Part shown: positions 2,558-9,532 of the stretch, in pieces
How positions within the stretch are numbered: position 1 is the first letter of the stretch
How the letters are laid out: every line of letters begins with the position of its first letter
NCBI GenBank assembly: GCA_965234725.1
Contig: CBDDUX010000005.1
Coordinates: forward strand, 1-20,026
Length of the DNA stretch: 20,026 nt
Source: Thermoplasmatota archaeon
GTDB taxonomy: Archaea > Thermoplasmatota > Penumbrarchaeia > Penumbrarchaeales > Penumbrarchaeaceae
Direction of reading: 5' to 3'
Notes under the pieces: model-generated
Database searches by the model: none
Told to the model about the DNA's origin: nothing
What the model saw: the letters and a program-made list of their open reading frames with translations, nothing else
Program-made: the position numbers and the translations under genes

Positions 2558-3007
2558 GAAGTGCTCCCGACGGAACCTTTGCCTTAAGAAGATGATCAAC
2601 GATGATCCTAAGGCAAAGGTCAGCTGAAAAACGGTTTCTATTAGAATATAATCATTTTTCAGCGTGTAAGATCGGTTATAGTAATGGTTTTCGGATTATT
2701 ATGTGATAGACGCAAGAAAATCATTACGGGAAAGGTGGCACTTCTTGTGATCTGGATAGAAGAGTATTTGAAAGAAGTGCTCCCGACGGAACCTTTTCAT
2801 CTGGGAAAGAACCTTCGAGAATTCAGATGAAAAGGTCAGCTGAAAAACGGTTTCTATTAGAATATAATCATTTTTCAGCGTGTAAGATCGGTTATAGTAA
2901 TGGTTTTCGGATTATTATGTGATAGACGCAAGAAAATCATTACGGGAATGGGGGCACTTCTTGTGATCTGGATAGAAGAGTATTAGAAAGAAGTGCTCCC
3001 GACGGAA
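2558..3007. repeat. tRNA-Glu 3'-end-anchored tandem array, period 216 bp, four palindromic cassettes per unit
   Basis: GAAGTGCTCCCGACGGAA occurs at 2558, 2774 and 2990. The two full units are identical except for 3 substitutions and a hypervariable 34-nt window inside the first palindrome. Confidence 0.95.
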
Positions 3008-3066
3008 TTTGAATCCGTGTCGCTGGCTCGAGAGGCCAGCATGATTGGCCGCTACACTACGGGAGC
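2994..3066 (-). tRNA. tRNA-Glu (CTC)
   Basis: Minus strand reads GCTCCCG-TA-GTGTAGCGGCCAATCAT-G-CTGGC CTCTCGA GCCAG-CGAC-ACGGA TTCAAAT TCCGT-CGGGAGC-A. Full cloverleaf; CCA not encoded. TATA-like TTATAAAG at about 3105-3112 on -. Confidence 0.96.
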
Positions 3067-3130: not shown

Positions 3131-4810
3131 CTATTGCTTCATCTGGTTCTGGATCTTTGCCCAGCTATCCCTTAATGTTGCAGTTCTATTGATGACAAGC
3201 ATCTCATTCGTAGTATCCAGATCAATGGTGAAATATCCGGTCCTCTCGAACTGGAACCTTGTTCCGATCGCAAGGTCCTTCACAGCAGGTTCTACCTTGC
3301 AGTTCTTCAAGACCTTTATGGATTCCGGGTCAATATATGACCTCCAATCTCCCTCGGAGAGGGGGTCCTCAATAGTGAAAAGCTTGTCATAGAGTCTGAT
3401 CTCGGCATTGATCGAACTATTTGCTGAAACCCAGTGCAAAGTTCCCTTGATCCTTCTTCCATCGGGGGCGGACCCTCCTTTTGATTCCGGATCGATCCTG
3501 CAAACGAGTTCCCTGATCTCATCCCCTTCCTTGATCACATCCACACAAGTTGCAAGATAAGCATTTCTCAGCCTGATCTCACTTCCGGGTGACATTCTGA
3601 AGAATTTCTTGGGGGGATCCTCCATGAAATCATCCCGCTCGATGAACAGGGTTTTTGTGAATGGGACCCTTCGAGTTCCAGCTTCAGGTTTTTCAGGATT
3701 GTTGACCAGCTCCATTTCCTCGATCCTGTTCTCATCGTAGTTCTCGATGGTAACCTTAAGGGGGTCCAAAACTCCCATGAACCTATTTGCCGTTTTGTTC
3801 AGATATTCCCTTACGCAATGTTCGAGAAGCTCAAAGGCAATGTTGGAATTCACTTTGGCTATCCCGACCCTGGAACAGAAGTCCCTGATGGCTTCCGGTG
3901 GATAACCTCTTCTTCTCATTCCGGATAGAGTTGGCATCCTGGGATCGTCCCAACTTTTGACGAGTTTCTCCTCCACCAGTTCAAGGAGCTTTCTTTTTGA
4001 CATGACGGTATAAGTCATATTCAGCCTTGCGAATTCTATCTGCTGAGGATGATATACATCATCTAACTGGTCGATGAACCAATCATACAAAGGTCTGTGA
4101 TTCTCGAATTCCAGGGTGCAAAGTGAATGAGTGATCCTCTCGATAGAATCCTCCAACCCATGGGCCCAGTCGTACATGGGGTAAATACACCATCGGTCCC
4201 CTGTGTTGTGGTGGCTCTTGTGAAGGATCCTGTACATGACCGGGTCCCTCATGTTCATATTCGGATGTGACATGTCGGCTTTTGCCCTGAGGACCTTTTC
4301 CCCATCCGGAAATTCTCCAGCCTTCATCCTCTTGAAAAGATCGATGTTCTCTTCAATGGGCCTGTCCCTGAAGGGGCTGTTCTTTCCAGGTTTTGTTAAG
4401 GTTCCTCTGGTGGCACTTATCTCCTCTGCGGTTTGCTCATCCACATAGGCTTTTCCTTTCTCAACGAGTTCCATTGCCCAATCGTAAAGCTGGTCGAAAT
4501 AATCCGATGCAAAGAAAAGTCTATCTTCCCAATCGAATCCAAGCCATTTCACATCCTCTATGATGGACCTGACATACTCATCCTCTTCCTTCGCAGGATT
4601 CGTATCATCGAATCTCAGGTTGCATTTTCCCCCGTATTCTTCAGCAATACCGAAATTCAAACAGATCGATTTTGCATGTCCGATATGGAGATATCCATTG
4701 GGTTCGGGTGGGAACCTCGTATGCACCCTGCTTTCAAACTTTCCGTTGAGGTTGTGCTCGTCGATGATCTCCCTGATGAAATCCCTGCCTGATCGTTTTT
4801 CTTCTTCCAT
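3131..4810 (-). CDS. glnS: Glutaminyl-tRNA synthetase, bacterial type
   Basis: [22 protein letters not shown] (HIGH), MSKRK (KMSKS equivalent), [14 protein letters not shown] (Cys where GluRS has Arg), QIEFARL and C-terminal beta-barrel FQFER. ATG 4810 follows an AGGTG RBS; the ORF track starts at GTG 4819. Confidence 0.95.
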
Positions 4811-4880
4811 CGAGGACACCTTCTGAAAGTGTTATGGTATCTGATTCTACTACATAATGTTGTCATATTGAGGTCATCTG

Positions 4881-5331
4881 AAATCGCAAGTAATCAGGAA
4901 CAAAATTTTGATATGCCTATGCATCAAAGATGCCCACGTGGTTCTCAGTTCTCATCTGGAGTGATTATAAGACAATAATAATCGGGACTACTTTTTTAGA
5001 TTAATTATTGATTATAAAAAAAGTAGCCCCGACCAGATTCTTGAGTTTTCCAAATTAATGATACAATGATCAGCAAAACTCAACCATCGCCACAATCGAA
5101 GATTGTGTCTGGTTCTCATCTGGAATAATTAGAATAAAATTACAATCGGGACTACTTTTTTGGATTAATTATTGATTATGAAAAAAGTAGCCCCGACCAG
5201 ATTCGAACCATCGCCAAAATCAGAGATTTTGTCTGCGTGTGCATCAAAGATGCGCACGTGGTTCCCAGTCCGAATCTGGCCAGGGATATCCATATTTTGA
5301 AGAAAAGAATTGGTAGCCCCGACCAGATTCG
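4881..5331. repeat. tRNA-Gln 3'-end-anchored modular repeat array with nested palindromes
   Basis: GTAGCCCCGACCAGATTC occurs at 5023, 5187 and 5313. There is a 93-bp duplication 4948-5040/5112-5204 and a module 4920-4949/5240-5269. Each tRNA-end copy has an inverted partner 18-19 nt away. The left boundary is degenerate and approximate. Confidence 0.9.
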
Positions 5332-5386
5332 AACTGGTGGCGGAAGATCCAGAGTCTCCCATGCTAGACCGCTACACTACGGGGCT
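5311..5386 (-). tRNA. tRNA-Gln (CTG)
   Basis: Minus strand reads AGCCCCG-TA-GTGTAGCGGTCTAGCAT-G-GGAGA CTCTGGA TCTTC-CGCC-ACCAG TTCGAAT CTGGT-CGGGGCT-ACCA. A1:U72 pair typical of archaeal tRNA-Gln; CCA encoded. Confidence 0.96.
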
Positions 5387-5805: not shown

Positions 5806-6447
5806 GTGATGTCGTTGAATTTTGATAGGTTCCTTCTTGAATTTCAGAAGACAGCAAAGGAACTGATCGAACATGATTGGGGTAGTTCGTTCTTCGGTAA
5901 TATCTCCCTATTGATCGATGAAGAAGATGAATTCCTCCGCTATCCGGTAATTTCATCCTTTTCTTCCCCAATCGAGGAGCCAGAGATCGAAGGCCGATAC
6001 CTGTTGATCACAAGGACCACATCCACCATGCAGGAAGTGGCCGATCACCCAGAAACTGCCATTGGCTTATACCGGATTGCAGGTGACTCTCTGGACCTTC
6101 TTTGGGGTAGAGGTCCTCCGACCAGTGAGGTCTCCACCCATCTCTTGGTCCATTCATTAGGTAAAGGCAGTGCTATAATCCATTGCCATATGCCCCTTCT
6201 TGGATCAATTTCACATGCCGATCTTGAATGGTCATTTTTTCCTGATAGCTTCTCCTATGTTGGAGAATTCGAACCGGGTTCGATCGGACTTGCTGAAGCG
6301 ACCAAGAAGTCGATGGAAAAAAACCATACTGTTATCTGGGTCGGCCATGGTGCTGTGACATATTCAGATGGACTTGGTAGATGTCTGGACAGATTGTATG
6401 TACTGGAGGACCTTTTAAAAGAGATCCATCCCTCTGGAGATTGTTAA
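5806..6447 (+). CDS. Class II aldolase/adducin family protein (rhamnulose-1-phosphate aldolase-like)
   Basis: GNIS, PTSEVSTH, metal ligands HCH and VIWVGHG, and the PGS motif. Confidence 0.85.
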   Translation: MMSLNFDRFLLEFQKTAKELIEHDWGSSFFGNISLLIDEEDEFLRYPVISSFSSPIEEPEIEGRYLLITRTTSTMQEVADHPETAIGLYRIAGDSLDLLWGRGPPTSEVSTHLLVHSLGKGSAIIHCHMPLLGSISHADLEWSFFPDSFSYVGEFEPGSIGLAEATKKSMEKNHTVIWVGHGAVTYSDGLGRCLDRLYVLEDLLKEIHPSGDC

Positions 6448-8816
6448 CCTGATCTCTGCCTGATGGCATTTACAAGTTTGATCTTTATGATATATCTCCC
6501 TGAGATATATGAAGCTGCCAGAGCAGATATGACGGCTATCATCGCTGTGACAATATATACTCCTGGACCAACCTCGATCACATAATACATCAGGTCCTTA
6601 ACCATATAGGCCATGGCCCATTTTGTTGTTATAACTCCCAAAGGAAGTCCTATTAGAAGACCTCCGACAAGGAGGATCAACGTTTCAGTCATTATCATCC
6701 ACATGACCCTACCAGGTTTTACCCCGATAGCCCTTAAGGAAATGAATTCCATTTCCCGGTCCAGGATGTTCAATACCACCGTTGTTGAAACGAAAAGGAC
6801 CTCGGCGATAACACCAAAAGCAATGAATATCAGGAACATGGAGATCAAACCCTGGAGCATATTCTCCATGCCGTTGATGACATCATCAGTATAGATGAAG
6901 GATGATACGTGGAATTCATCCCTGACCATGGTTTCTATCTGGTCCTTATCCATACCTGCTTTATTCAGGACAATGGAGTTCGCAAATTCTCCCATTCCGA
7001 ATATTGACCAAGCCTGGTCCAGAGTCATCAGGAATGAATCATCCATCAATTCGCCTGTGATCCCTGTCACTTCGGCAGATGAGGTCATATTCCCTATAAC
7101 AAAAACAACAGTGTCACCCACGGTGATCCCAAGGTCTTTTGCAAGTATCGAACCAGCAAGTATTCCCCTCTCTGGTTTGTAGTTACCTTCGATCAGATGG
7201 AATTTCCTTAGACTTGAACCATTCTCGAAAGCCTGTATCCTGGCAAAACTCAATTTATCCCCATCTTCAATAGGGATGTAATCGTCTATTGAGATCTCAG
7301 CATCCGTCCCCCGGTATTCGTTAGATCCGATTACGTTCAGTGCCTGGGATGCAGGTATGGGATCGATAAGGGTAACCTTAAGGTCCCATTTCTCATAGTT
7401 ATCATAGTTCTTCTGCAAGGGTTGGGTAAAACCGAATGTCAATGCCAGACAGGAGAATACCAGTATCAAGGATACTCCGAGTGATATCAGTGTAATTCCA
7501 GTTCTGAGCTTGTGCCTGCTCAGGTTCCTTAGTGGAATACGGGGAAGTATGGGTCTCTTGTACGCGATCAAATTAAAAAGCCTTTCCAAAAGGGGTTTCT
7601 TTGAAAAATCCTGCACAGAATACTGCGAAGTAAGTGCCTCCCTTGGACCGATCCTTATTGCTTTCAGGGAACCAAGGAATGCTCCAAGTGTCGCAATGGA
7701 GATCCCTATTATCGAAAACGCAGCTACATATTCCCAATTCACGTCCGATACCGGATCCACCATGCCGATGAAACTGGCGTATTCTGTGATCGTTAGTTTC
7801 GATATGCCAATACCAAAAGGTATACCTAAAAGGGCACCGGCAGCACCCATAAAGAAACCAAATAGGGAATAATGTATCAGAATGTCCGACATCCTCCCTC
7901 CCAAGGCCCCCATTACGCCGATATACGCTCTCTGTGTAGATATCAGCCGGGTCATTGAATTGTAGATGACCACTGCGGTAACAACAAGTATTATCGTGCC
8001 GAATATCCACCCCATTTGACCCATGGCGCCTGCATCGGTCCTGGAGAACAGATAATCGTTCTCCATCGTGCCCAGAAGTGACGTTGTAATTCGAACTCCC
8101 TTGCCTGTAAGGTAGGTCTCTAATGCTTCCTTCACTTTGCTTGCATCGTGACCATTTTCCACTGTGACAAGTAGCTCATTATAGGTGTCATTGTCAAGTC
8201 CCAATAGGTCATTTGTGATCTCATAGGTTGTGAATAATGGTAGGAGAAGCGAGGGTTCGGGCCATCCTTCATCGCTAACAACGTAGATGTACTCGGGTGA
8301 TGCCACCGATCCGGTTACTGTCAAATTGAAGGTCTTATTGGCATAGATGACCTTCAGAGTATCACCCGGTCCAATGTTGTTTGAATCAGCGAAGATATTT
8401 CCGATCAAAGCCTCCATTTCCAAAGGTCCGGAAATGTAGTCCCCATCAGTAAGCTGATATCCATTGATCAGTGAATATGGTTTCACCGGGTAATATGGTG
8501 ATGAAATCCATTGGGTCTTGAATCTCTTATCTCCTATTGCAACCTGGGTTTCGATGAATGTCCTTCCACTTGCCGTTTTGACACCATCTATATTTTCGAT
8601 CTCGGAAATGTCCAAAGAGGTCATGTTGAAATGTATGTCAATGTCTTCGTAATTTGTCACTTCCAATCTCTTATCGAATGAGTCAAATGCATTCCTGGTC
8701 GCATTTACCAGACCGATTCCGAGGCCTACTGAAAGGGATATAGCAAGGATCATGGAAATGGTCCTCAATTTGTTCCTCATGAGGTCCCTGACTGCCTTCT
8801 TCAGTAGGATGATCAT
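6444..8816 (-). CDS. ABC transporter permease, FtsX/MacB-like (duplicated)
   Basis: Two repeats of TM + large extracellular domain + 3 TM. Motifs QRAYIGVMGALG and REMEFISLRAIG. ATGA overlap with the ATPase gene. Confidence 0.9.
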   Translation of the reverse strand: MIILLKKAVRDLMRNKLRTISMILAISLSVGLGIGLVNATRNAFDSFDKRLEVTNYEDIDIHFNMTSLDISEIENIDGVKTASGRTFIETQVAIGDKRFKTQWISSPYYPVKPYSLINGYQLTDGDYISGPLEMEALIGNIFADSNNIGPGDTLKVIYANKTFNLTVTGSVASPEYIYVVSDEGWPEPSLLLPLFTTYEITNDLLGLDNDTYNELLVTVENGHDASKVKEALETYLTGKGVRITTSLLGTMENDYLFSRTDAGAMGQMGWIFGTIILVVTAVVIYNSMTRLISTQRAYIGVMGALGGRMSDILIHYSLFGFFMGAAGALLGIPFGIGISKLTITEYASFIGMVDPVSDVNWEYVAAFSIIGISIATLGAFLGSLKAIRIGPREALTSQYSVQDFSKKPLLERLFNLIAYKRPILPRIPLRNLSRHKLRTGITLISLGVSLILVFSCLALTFGFTQPLQKNYDNYEKWDLKVTLIDPIPASQALNVIGSNEYRGTDAEISIDDYIPIEDGDKLSFARIQAFENGSSLRKFHLIEGNYKPERGILAGSILAKDLGITVGDTVVFVIGNMTSSAEVTGITGELMDDSFLMTLDQAWSIFGMGEFANSIVLNKAGMDKDQIETMVRDEFHVSSFIYTDDVINGMENMLQGLISMFLIFIAFGVIAEVLFVSTTVVLNILDREMEFISLRAIGVKPGRVMWMIMTETLILLVGGLLIGLPLGVITTKWAMAYMVKDLMYYVIEVGPGVYIVTAMIAVISALAASYISGRYIIKIKLVNAIRQRSG

Positions 8817-9532
8817 TCTTCTTTCACCTTCTTGCTCAAAGGATCATTGAATCTTTGATCGGATATCATTCCATCCATAAGGTGGATCACCCTATCGGCG
8901 ACCTCCGTGATCGAAATATCATGCGAGACCACTATGAACGTGATCCCTTCTTTCTTGTTCAGATCTCTCATCAGATCCGCGATCTTCCTGCCTGTGACCC
9001 AATCCAGGTTACCTGTGGGTTCATCAGCAAGGACTATTCCTGGTCTCTTTACCAGTGCTCTGGCAATAGCGACCCTTTGTTGTTCCCCACCCGAAAGTTG
9101 GGATGGGAACATATTAGCCTTGTCTGGGATGCCCACAAGAGCAAGGGCCTCCTGGCTCCTTTTCATCATATCCTTCCTATCCCTGGCCATTTCCAGAGAA
9201 AGTGCGACATTCTCAACTGCTGTGAGGGAGGGAATGAGGTTGAAGAACTGGAATATCCATCCCACCTTTTCCCTTCTGTATTCGGAGAGTTTCCTTTCAC
9301 TTAAAGATCCAATATCCCTGCCATTTACCTTGATGGTCCCTTCTGAAGGTGAATCGATACCGCCCAAGCAGTTAAGGAGGGTCGTCTTCCCAGAACCGCT
9401 GGGTCCTAGGATCACTAGGAACTCCCCTTTTTTAACATTGAGGGAGATCCCCCTTAATGCTTTAACCTCAACCTCACCTAGTTTGAAGGTTCTCTTGATC
9501 CTATCTATTACCATGATATCATTTTCGTTCAT
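8813..9532 (-). CDS. ABC transporter ATP-binding protein (LolD/MacB-like)
   Basis: Walker A GPSGSGKT, Q-loop IFQFFNL, LSGGEQQR, Walker B VLADEPTGNLD, H-loop VSHD. Confidence 0.95.
   Translation of the reverse strand: MNENDIMVIDRIKRTFKLGEVEVKALRGISLNVKKGEFLVILGPSGSGKTTLLNCLGGIDSPSEGTIKVNGRDIGSLSERKLSEYRREKVGWIFQFFNLIPSLTAVENVALSLEMARDRKDMMKRSQEALALVGIPDKANMFPSQLSGGEQQRVAIARALVKRPGIVLADEPTGNLDWVTGRKIADLMRDLNKKEGITFIVVSHDISITEVADRVIHLMDGMISDQRFNDPLSKKVKEE

Follow-up and report, generated by a model that had tools for sequence, protein, structure and literature searches.

Casposons are Cas1-solo transposons that carry terminal inverted repeats and make a fixed duplication of 14-15 bp. In the attP(+) of CTX phage, in IMEX and in the attC sites of integrons, the substrate is a folded single strand, in which inverted target-like stretches mimic a duplex target. 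In these systems the structure is kept while the sequence varies, folding is strand-specific, and the target is regenerated, giving rise to tandem arrays. Integron cassettes are further marked by R''/R' core sites (GTTRRRY) and by an adjacent intI with attI. Casposons target the tRNA 3' end, where they duplicate about 15 bp according to the available part of one report (PMC5137440). Tycheposons, according to the available part of the preprint describing them in Prochlorococcus, insert at the 3' part of tRNA genes and leave the tRNA intact, with a direct repeat of the tRNA's 3' part on each flank; tandem stacking pushes older inserts outward, and cargo-only members exist (10.1101/2020.12.28.424599). 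Finally, the palindrome CGTTA-N9-TAACG lies downstream of half of the tRNA genes of Methanopyrus kandleri, as given in the part of the source that was accessible (PMC5217627).

Here we describe an array of two 216-bp units next to a tRNA-Glu(CTC) gene, in a window of 20,026 nt from a Thermoplasmatota genome (G000). Its units belong to a family of modules that share features with each of the systems above. Like tRNA-integrating elements (tycheposons, archaeal tyrosine-recombinase elements), the module comes with repeats of the 3' part of the tRNA, an intact tRNA, and tandem stacking. Unlike integrase-type elements, however, it measures only 165-216 bp, is gene-less and has no integrase inside its repeats; the repeat starts at tRNA position 60 rather than at a crossover in the T-loop or anticodon loop; and one module family uses many tRNAs, with covarying hairpins, the last of which forms its stem together with the target. 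The hairpins resemble integron attC in their conserved structure, variable sequence and one-strand bias. This likeness is by analogy, with no link to Xer or IntI seen: the module has three or four hairpins with loops of ~23 nt, its host is archaeal, and its target is the tRNA 3' end, not dif or attI. The module can also be likened to MITEs and PATEs, which are small structured elements without genes that occur in many copies and depend on enzymes acting in trans, but it differs from them in lying strictly at the tRNA end, in fixed orientation and with a long flanking repeat. Compared with casposons, it has a duplication of 14-19 bp and no terminal inverted repeats. With the M. kandleri palindrome it shares the position of a palindromic motif just 3' of many archaeal tRNA genes; that motif, in the accessible part of its description, is a single 19-bp stretch of conserved sequence, with no tRNA-end duplication, multi-hairpin unit or tandem copies.

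Arrays of partial tRNAs from repeated integration, and small site-specific insertions at tRNA genes, are already known; what appears to be new is the gene-less multi-hairpin design. Searches of open full texts, restricted to the main text, turned up no such unit. The module looks like an undescribed miniature mobile element at tRNA ends.

The array at tRNA-Glu(CTC)

The features of the array are listed in Table 1. Its repeated 18-mer, GAAGTGCTCCCGACGGAA, consists of the last bases of tRNA-Glu read on the + strand. It runs from tRNA position 60 to the discriminator plus three trailer nucleotides, and thus spans one T-loop base, the 3' strand of the T-stem, the 3' strand of the acceptor stem, the discriminator and three trailer bases. 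The repeat search recovered three copies, 100% identical and spaced by 216 and 216 bp, exactly as proposed in an earlier note on this DNA, which had been made from the letters alone. The four hairpins that it described in unit 2 are likewise all present, by inverted-repeat search for H1, H2 and H4 and by direct reading for H3, which the automated repeat search, with its seed of 7 exact bases, missed. The note had called them unrelated palindromes: they are indeed inverted repeats, but the description is incomplete, with H1-H3 forming a conserved, covarying architecture and H4 being built from the tRNA end.

Table 1. Features of the array within the window.
Feature	Position	Strand	Basis
tRNA-Glu(CTC)	2993-3066	-	ARAGORN; Rfam RF00005, 60.4 bits
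DR1, distal direct repeat, antisense copy of tRNA-Glu 3' end	2558-2575	+	repeat search, 100%
DR2, middle direct repeat	2774-2791	+	repeat search, same repeat family as DR1
DR3, proximal direct repeat, the tRNA-Glu gene's own 3' end	2990-3007	+	ARAGORN and repeat search
Unit 1 module core (H1-H2-H3)	2572-2743	+	covariance model R1, 153.7 bits, E 3e-40
Unit 2 module core (H1-H2-H3)	2788-2959	+	covariance model R1, 148.9 bits, E 7e-39
H1, unit 1	2575-2620 (arms 2575-2589/2606-2620)	+	inverted repeat, 15 nt, 93%
H1, unit 2	2791-2836 (arms 2791-2803/2824-2836)	+	inverted repeat, 13/13 complementary
H2, unit 1, GCTGAAAAA ... TTTTTCAGC	2623-2663	+	inverted repeat
H2, unit 2	2839-2879 (arms 2839-2852/2866-2879)	+	inverted repeat
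H3, unit 1, GTAATGGTTTTC/GAAAATCATTAC, one G.T on + strand, TAGACG in loop	2681-2727	+	direct reading
H3, unit 2, 12 bp with one G.T, TAGACG in loop at 2923-2928	2897-2943 (arms 2897-2908/2932-2943)	+	direct reading
H4, unit 1, internal arm copying the tRNA end in sense, pairs with DR2 plus 2 nt	2734-2784	+	inverted repeat, 9/9
H4, unit 2, GGGGGCACTTCTT versus AAGAAGTGCTCCC	2950-3000 (arms 2950-2962/2988-3000)	+	inverted repeat, 13 nt, 92%

The arm AAGAAGTGCTCCC in H4 of unit 2 is trailer plus the 3' end of tRNA-Glu itself. Tandem Repeats Finder reported a period of 216 with 98% matches from position 2615 onward; over the full 216 bp the two units are 90% alike, because their H1 regions (2575-2620 and 2791-2836) differ in sequence. 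These regions are wholly different and nevertheless both form hairpins of 13-15 bp. The H1 of unit 2 matches the H1 in the single unit of a congener, G004.

The unit is structured beyond chance: when 2774-3007 was folded as RNA, z was -4.9 for both strands; folded as DNA, it was -4.8; and 0 of 200 dinucleotide shuffles folded as well. The possibility of an assembly artefact, which the earlier note had raised, was assessed with data from two runs. Run X1 contains 0.94 of the words sampled from the stretch, and its unitigs cover the flank and H1 of unit 1 (2300-2643), the junction of the two units with the second H1 (2739-2859), and unit 2 with the tRNA (2955-3066), at a depth equal to that of the flanks and carrying both H1 variants; because the assembly probably derives from X1, this support is not independent. 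In data of a different study (X2), one contig spans DR1, unit 1 and DR2 (2558-2791) with 6 differences. As far as contigs and unitigs can show, short of a spanning long read, the array is not an assembly artefact. The genes neighbouring the array are an S8 peptidase and a GlnRS-like gene, with no integrase among them, in line with the note's statement that no enzyme is encoded locally.

Copies of the module and their junctions with tRNA genes

A BLAST search of the array against its own genome placed the H2-H3 part on other contigs, at ~72-74% identity. The module core (H1-H2-H3) is ~170 nt long, and an nhmmer profile identified 12 full copies in G000. We built a covariance model (R1) from 29 module copies, which yielded 20 matches in G000, with 12 scoring over 130 bits. 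Matches to R1 were present in all 24 genomes of the taxonomic family, across 7 genera, with 4-28 matches per genome. In all, R1 matches number ~330, and sequences were retrieved for ~60 of these. Across the class, 28 of 37 genomes were matched, and nine had no match at the same threshold. Convincing cases outside the family were confined to two genomes, each from a different family: G025, with 3 matches (best E 3.9e-23), and G028, with 4 (best 4.2e-13); the matches in G027 and G035 were weak, near 1e-4. The copies in G025 and G028 are also located at tRNA 3' ends (tRNA-Gly, tRNA-Leu and tRNA-Glu). They have H1, H3 and the loop motifs as in the family; their H2 is different, without the A5:T5 core that is near-invariant within the family, and there is no T-run after CCA. 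According to run records, the carrier family consists of marine-sediment organisms. When the window was searched with Rfam, only two tRNAs passed the gathering score, the best of the other matches in the array having 20-25 bits and E of 0.4-1.8. A search of viral contigs with one strict H2 pattern returned 0 stretches.

The modules carry a consistent signature at tRNA 3' ends. Counting copies with at most 1 mismatch within 2.5 kb of the 40 ARAGORN tRNAs of G000, we found 1-4 downstream copies of the tRNA's own last 14 nt at 12 of the 40, and upstream copies at none. All 12 full modules in this genome are flanked by tRNA 3'-end repeats. Eight lie less than 1 kb from a tRNA (two at Glu-CTC, two at Leu-GAG, and one each at Gly-GCC, Gly-CCC, Arg-GCG and a Ser-like tRNA on C2 missing from the ARAGORN calls), and the other four, with tRNA-Ala repeats, mark the distal boundary of gene-carrying islands or lie on contigs that stop short of the tRNA (C28, C38 twice, and C12). 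Across genomes, the right repeat matched the left 12-mer with at most 2 mismatches in 55 of the 59 modules having both flanks. By hand count, 32 of the 59 right repeats continue into an antisense T-loop (ATTYG), that is, a tRNA or tRNA fragment on the opposite strand; ~18 lead straight to the next module, and the other 9 have a different continuation. The module is always antisense to the tRNA, which is left intact, and wherever the left junction was read, it fell at tRNA position 59/60. On its outer side the repeat reaches anywhere from the discriminator to 3 nt past CCA, resulting in an identity block of 14-19 bp whose outer edge is blurred by A/T-rich flanks. The same unit was found behind at least 12 different tRNA ends. 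In keeping with an idea of the earlier note, the units behave as small non-coding elements inserted at the tRNA end, and tRNA-matched direct repeats surround the module at many tRNAs and in many genomes.

Copy number, which the note had suggested comparing between strains, differs between congeners. At Glu-CTC, where G000 has two units, G004 has a single one with the H1 of unit 2, 92% alike, and the sequence beyond its distal repeat is unrelated. At Gly-GCC there is one module in G000, one in G004 and two in G003; at Leu-GAG, two in G000 and three in G004. The Ala-TGC locus has four modules in G004, and in G000 this tRNA is at the start of contig C103, its downstream region being unassembled. 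Sequence also varies within modules. Between G000 and G004 orthologues the H2 loop is swapped, ten of its ~18 bases being different while the rest differs at ~8 positions, and in the C38 and C28 copies H3-H4 are identical while H1 and H2 differ. In the Gly-GCC locus of G004, the interval from CCA+TT to the module is filled exactly by ~375 bp of other inserts. The arrays also harbour further small inserts: four 143-bp partial tRNA-Arg units, a 1.4-kb cassette with a single gene, and an element whose inverted ends resemble a T-arm. Unlike the modules, whose repeat starts at position 60, other inserts in these arrays do include the T-loop.

Target duplication, fixed orientation, the use of many tRNAs, tandem trains and copy-number differences between congeners are the marks of site-specific insertion. 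With no near-identical copies observed at different tRNAs, recent jumps are undemonstrated. An empty site conserved on both flanks was not found (at tRNA-Gly-GCC, 3 of the 3 congeners having the flank also carry the module), and no excised or circular form of the module was seen.

Fold, strand and terminal hairpin

Along the antisense strand (relative to the tRNA), the elements follow one another as direct repeat, H1, (C/T)(C/G)AG, H2, linker, H3, and next repeat. H1 has a stem of 10-14 bp and a ~23-nt loop with (T)TGACG/ACGAT. H2 has a 9-bp stem, GATGAAAAA..TTTTTCATC in the taxonomic family, with a loop of the form CGGT...ATCA, and is joined by a conserved, CGTGTGTAATCAATTTGTA-like linker to H3, a 12-bp stem whose ~23-nt loop has TTGACGA(N)A at its end. 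The 55 modules with a matched right repeat comprise 24 of a short and 31 of a long form. In the short form (~165 bp), the outer end of the repeat, TGGTGC (complement of GCACCA), doubles as the 3' arm of H3, whose 5' arm is GCACCA plus 6-7 nt. In the long form (~195-216 bp), which includes the window units, H3 is self-contained and H4 pairs with the tRNA end. In the last hairpin (H4, or H3 in short forms) the tRNA end is paired with an internal arm, and this arm varies with the tRNA: the 5' and 3' arms are GGGGGCACTTCTT and AAGAAGTGCTCCC at tRNA-Glu, GGTCCACTCTCC and GGAGAGTGGACC at tRNA-Ala, and GGGGCGCGCTT and AAGCGCCCC at tRNA-Arg. The longest paired run of the terminal arm had a median of 9 with its own junction and 6 with the junctions of modules at other tRNAs, and runs of at least 9 were seen in 36 of 57 own versus 283 of 2586 cross pairings, a comparison limited by GCACCA being common to many tRNAs.

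The stems are maintained by compensatory change. In a MAFFT alignment of 29 copies, which does not lean towards the model, RNAalifold predicted 33 pairs in three helices, with compensatory double changes in 28 of the 33. When 71 distinct copies were aligned to R1, an alignment biased in favour of the model to which it was fitted, 97.7% of 2244 cells were standard pairs versus 68.0% in shuffled data, with both-side changes in 31 of 33 pairs; sliding the partner by 1-3 columns brought pairing down to 45-55%. Among the non-Watson-Crick cells, excluding the two inner H2 pairs, GT and TG amounted to 54 and AC and CA to 6; an alignment-free count with symmetric scoring over distinct stems pointed in the same direction, 16 versus 6, although the copies are related and neither pairing nor wobble counts are independent events. 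The minimum free energy of unit 2 was -73.9 kcal/mol for the + strand and -60.8 for the - strand. The wobble asymmetry and the folding energies indicate that the folding strand is therefore the strand antisense to the tRNA, which argues against a structure in the pre-tRNA trailer and against a symmetric cruciform. The alternative offered by the earlier note, a structured RNA co-transcribed with the tRNA, is disfavoured by these same G.T wobbles. From the strand-specific, compensated fold and the conserved loop words, we infer that a single-stranded form is recognised.

A host function in cis of the tRNA genes, in which the module would be a bidirectional terminator or insulator or a 3'-processing signal, also has to be considered. 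The taxonomic family has T5 placed directly after CCA, and the A5:T5 core of H2 gives T5 on both strands; a maturation signal was also the guess made for the palindrome downstream of M. kandleri tRNAs in the accessible part of that report (PMC5217627). We consider this very unlikely, however: modules accompany a minority of tRNAs (8 full modules at less than 1 kb versus 40 ARAGORN tRNAs in G000), the G028 and G025 versions lack both the A5:T5 core and the T-run after CCA, the wobbles favour the strand that is not the pre-tRNA, and tandem copies, or copies kilobases away from a tRNA (C38, C12, C28), make no sense for processing.

Alternatively, the module could be the gene for, or a processed part of, a structured small RNA antisense to the tRNA trailer and 3' end, with the repeats as a by-product of its spread. 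The target of such an RNA might, for example, be the tRNA, the pre-tRNA or the tRNA gene. The strong covariation of the stems, wobble pairs favouring one strand and the conserved loop and linker motifs would all be expected of it, as would the presence in 24 of 24 family genomes, including those without a detectable full integrase, and a + strand with 17-20 nt complementary to the tRNA 3' end. We nonetheless regard it as rather unlikely, although it is the strongest competitor of the mobile element. Rfam returned no match beyond snoRNA-like noise at E>0.4, the unit contains no conserved promoter, and the upstream flanks of single-unit loci are unrelated. Within the family, T5 tracts, which are archaeal terminators, occur in the arms of H2 and H3 on both strands. 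Furthermore, an RNA gene alone leaves the flanking duplication of the tRNA end unexplained. The tRNA promoters of G000 have a AAAGNTTTTAWAATA-like box, which the AT-rich H3 loops resemble in some copies only. In the RNA-library run X7, one contig covers 2989-3159 (the tRNA and upstream), diverging before the module and so carrying no weight for or against its transcription.

Two further structural readings were discarded. A C/D-box RNA has conserved C (RUGAUGA) and D (CUGA) boxes with a terminal stem; the box-like words that would make H2 or H3 a K-turn or C/D-box RNA (on the - strand of H2) lack conservation from copy to copy, and the Rfam snoRNA matches are below threshold. Loop 13-mers from H1, H2 and H3 of 12 modules matched only other modules in G000, which speaks against loops as guides or spacers; nothing spacer-like was found that would fit the proto-array imagined in the earlier note.

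Candidate enzymes and the proposed mode of insertion

The units contain no ORF, and we searched the genomes for enzymes that could mobilise them. G000 has 7 tyrosine-recombinase matches, 2 Cas1, 1 RT and 1 IS110 transposase, none of them beside a module, and 0 matches to the Y1 transposase (PF01797), in an assembly that is 97.65% complete. Among the 23 family relatives, tyrosine recombinases were detected in 15, the misses being mostly incomplete genomes, and RT in 5. G001 (95% complete), with 18-19 R1 matches, has only a 104-aa integrase fragment. Two of the loci that we inspected have integrase ORFs abutting the array, G008:C33 (242 aa) and G009:C108 (270 aa, Xer-like); in both (L162, L178) the ORF lies outside the outermost repeat and not within a repeat-bounded unit. 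The earlier note had named tyrosine integrases and casposases as enzymes known to duplicate tRNA 3' ends. The former exist in the genome but never inside a unit, and the latter find no support, as terminal inverted repeats are absent and the Cas1 genes, on C106 and C59, are not near modules. A casposon derivative was rejected for the same reasons. A MITE fits poorly as well, the left end (H1 start) and the right end (before the repeat) being unrelated and no terminal inverted repeats seen. An IS200/IS605 PATE does not fit a genome without Y1 (HUH) transposase and a module with a duplication; a tRNA-primed retroelement, whose PBS would be 18 nt complementary to the mature tRNA with its CCA, does not fit a repeat that copies the gene's CTTC, not CCA, nor the sporadic RT; and for an IS110 bridge RNA there is a single transposase on another contig, with no loop-target complementarity seen.

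We also considered the modules as leftover att-proximal ends of larger integrase-borne elements that have lost cargo and integrase by deletion, the hairpins being an old arm or regulatory region incapable of self-movement. Arrays of partial tRNAs from successive integration are known, as described in the available part of the tycheposon preprint (10.1101/2020.12.28.424599). Modules with tRNA-Ala repeats mark the far ends of gene islands (e.g. C28:5474-5670, 8.7 kb from tRNA-Ala-GGC), and two arrays are abutted by integrase ORFs. This origin is nevertheless quite unlikely, given that modules are self-contained 165-216-bp units with repeats on both sides even at island ends, and that no copy was found joined to an integrase without a repeat between them. 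Decay would not maintain 97.7% pairing through compensatory change, and at least 12 different tRNA ends would be unusual for one integrase. Overall, the remnant and the host-signal explanations fit fewer facts than a mobile element or an antisense RNA.

The explanation that we tentatively prefer, at slightly less than an even chance, is a non-autonomous element specific for tRNA 3' ends that moves in trans through a strand-specific folded intermediate, formed by the antisense strand. Each 216-bp unit would be one copy of a miniature non-coding element consisting of H1, H2, H3 and, in the longer form, H4. Insertion would occur somewhere in the stretch that begins at tRNA position 59/60, the 3' edge of the T-loop, and reaches to the gene end, placing a 14-19-bp stretch of the tRNA on both sides of the insert and leaving the tRNA intact. 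The last hairpin would combine the duplicated tRNA end with its internal inverted copy, so that the antisense strand, once single-stranded, may fold into a short duplex imitating the target. A putative trans-acting recombinase would recognise the folded strand and the TTGACG-type loops and join the strand to the tRNA end, following a logic of single-strand recombination analogous to that of CTX phage and integron attC. Further insertions, possible because the target is regenerated, or unequal crossing-over, would give tandem trains such as the two units of the window. Several points weigh against a mobile element. Among them, no recombinase is tied to the module, a fold kept by all genomes of the family might just as well reflect a host function, and the variable repeat length (14-19 bp) is at odds both with a strict target-site duplication and with a defined att core.

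A more specific, and doubtful, proposal is that the elements are gene-less and self-aiming. The internal arm complementary to the tRNA 3' end would let the folded antisense strand, as ssDNA or RNA, mimic the target, a host or helper recombinase would join the two, and a change in the arm would retarget the element. This would represent an archaeal insertion system guided by structure and base pairing without a dedicated gene.

If the non-autonomous element is real, a whole archaeal family carries 4-28 uncatalogued structured elements per genome, only at tRNA 3' ends. They would join the elements known to land at tRNA genes, as a member without genes and with strand specificity whose target recognition is achieved partly by pairing, and would account for contig breaks and stray tRNA fragments at the tRNA loci of these MAGs. 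At ~170 nt, the module would also be a compact, testable substrate with which to look for the archaeal recombinase or RNA-binding protein behind it.

Two minor observations concern other genes of this genome. It encodes Nop5/56 and an archaeal Hel308-type helicase, which mark the host as an archaeon; the closest Nop5 cluster of the atlas is commonest in Thermoplasmatota, which serves as a lead only. The 562-aa synthetase neighbouring the array had only bacterial relatives among those returned by the scan, at 58-68% identity, with no archaeal locus context.

Small elements in tRNA-end arrays

The arrays at tRNA 3' ends also house a second small element, distinct from the module (the non-coding hairpin unit). 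Its ends are inverted and T-arm-like (GGGATTTGAACCC ... GGAATCAAATCC), its interior holds a hairpin, GGTTGAGCA..TGCTCAACC, with TTGACGATA in the loop, as well as a further hairpin, GCAAAAT..ATTTTGC, and the repeat that flanks it includes the T-loop. Behind tRNA-Arg(GCG), every tandem unit (4/4) finishes with the tRNA's final ~22 nt and carries a hairpin, CTGGAACCGC..GCGGTTCCAG, together with an antisense T-arm-like word. The tRNA-Gly(CCC) gene reads ...CCGCACTA, but ...CCGCACCA stands in all three repeat copies downstream of it; either one change removed the gene's encoded CCA, or the copies stem from a CCA-bearing form.

Locations of the elements and genes described (contigs, C, of genome G000, that of the window; L, loci)
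Feature	Location	Strand	Context
Second small element	C109:20300-21250; C26:23100-23800; C63:68169 region; C2:90820-91000		
Second small element	L183:935-1160		
143-bp units, four in tandem	C20:24830-25415 (L050)		downstream of tRNA-Arg(GCG)
tRNA-Gly(CCC)	C109:21115-21188		three repeat copies downstream
1.4-kb cassette	C28:12851-14247		single SAM-methyltransferase-like ORF
Module with tRNA-Ala repeats, then large ORF	C38:77445-77660, then 77935-83325	same	
Module with tRNA-Ala repeats, then large ORF	C28:5470-5690, then 5894-9151	same	
Module with tRNA-Ala repeats, then large ORF	C12:9180-8965, then 8677-4463	same	
Tyrosine recombinase ORFs, 320 aa	C102:6823-7296; C44:20287-20766		paralogous
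Class I Glu/Gln-tRNA synthetase, 562 aa	window 3131-4819	-	Pfam
tRNA-Gln	window 5311-5386		flanks synthetase
tRNA-Glu	window 2993-3066		flanks synthetase
Inverted repeats	window 2316-2329/2381-2394; 2390-2406/2416-2432		spacer between S8 peptidase gene and array

Genes at tRNA-Ala and tRNA-Thr

The methyltransferase-like cassette is bounded by tRNA-Ala 3'-end repeats, T-loop included, and gene cassettes therefore share their landing site with modules. Very large ORFs (1085 to >1796 aa) start 200-300 bp downstream of three modules with tRNA-Ala repeats, on the shared strand. Their sequences are secreted-looking; a Pfam search with the first 393 aa of one of the three gave no match.

Each tyrosine recombinase ORF lies ~1 kb downstream of its own tRNA-Thr gene, on the same strand, and no tRNA-Thr end repeats were found within 2.5 kb at either locus.

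Surroundings of the window array

Positions 2316-2432, in the gap that separates the array from the peptidase gene, hold a stretch rich in purines, GGGGGGGAAGTGGGGGATTAGAGAGGAGAGAGAGG, and, with the inverted repeats listed above, an (AT)n palindrome; neither belongs to the module family. Bacterial homologues from many phyla are 58-68% identical to the synthetase, which looks like a bacterial-type GlnRS taken up by the archaeon and now located between tRNA-Gln and tRNA-Glu.
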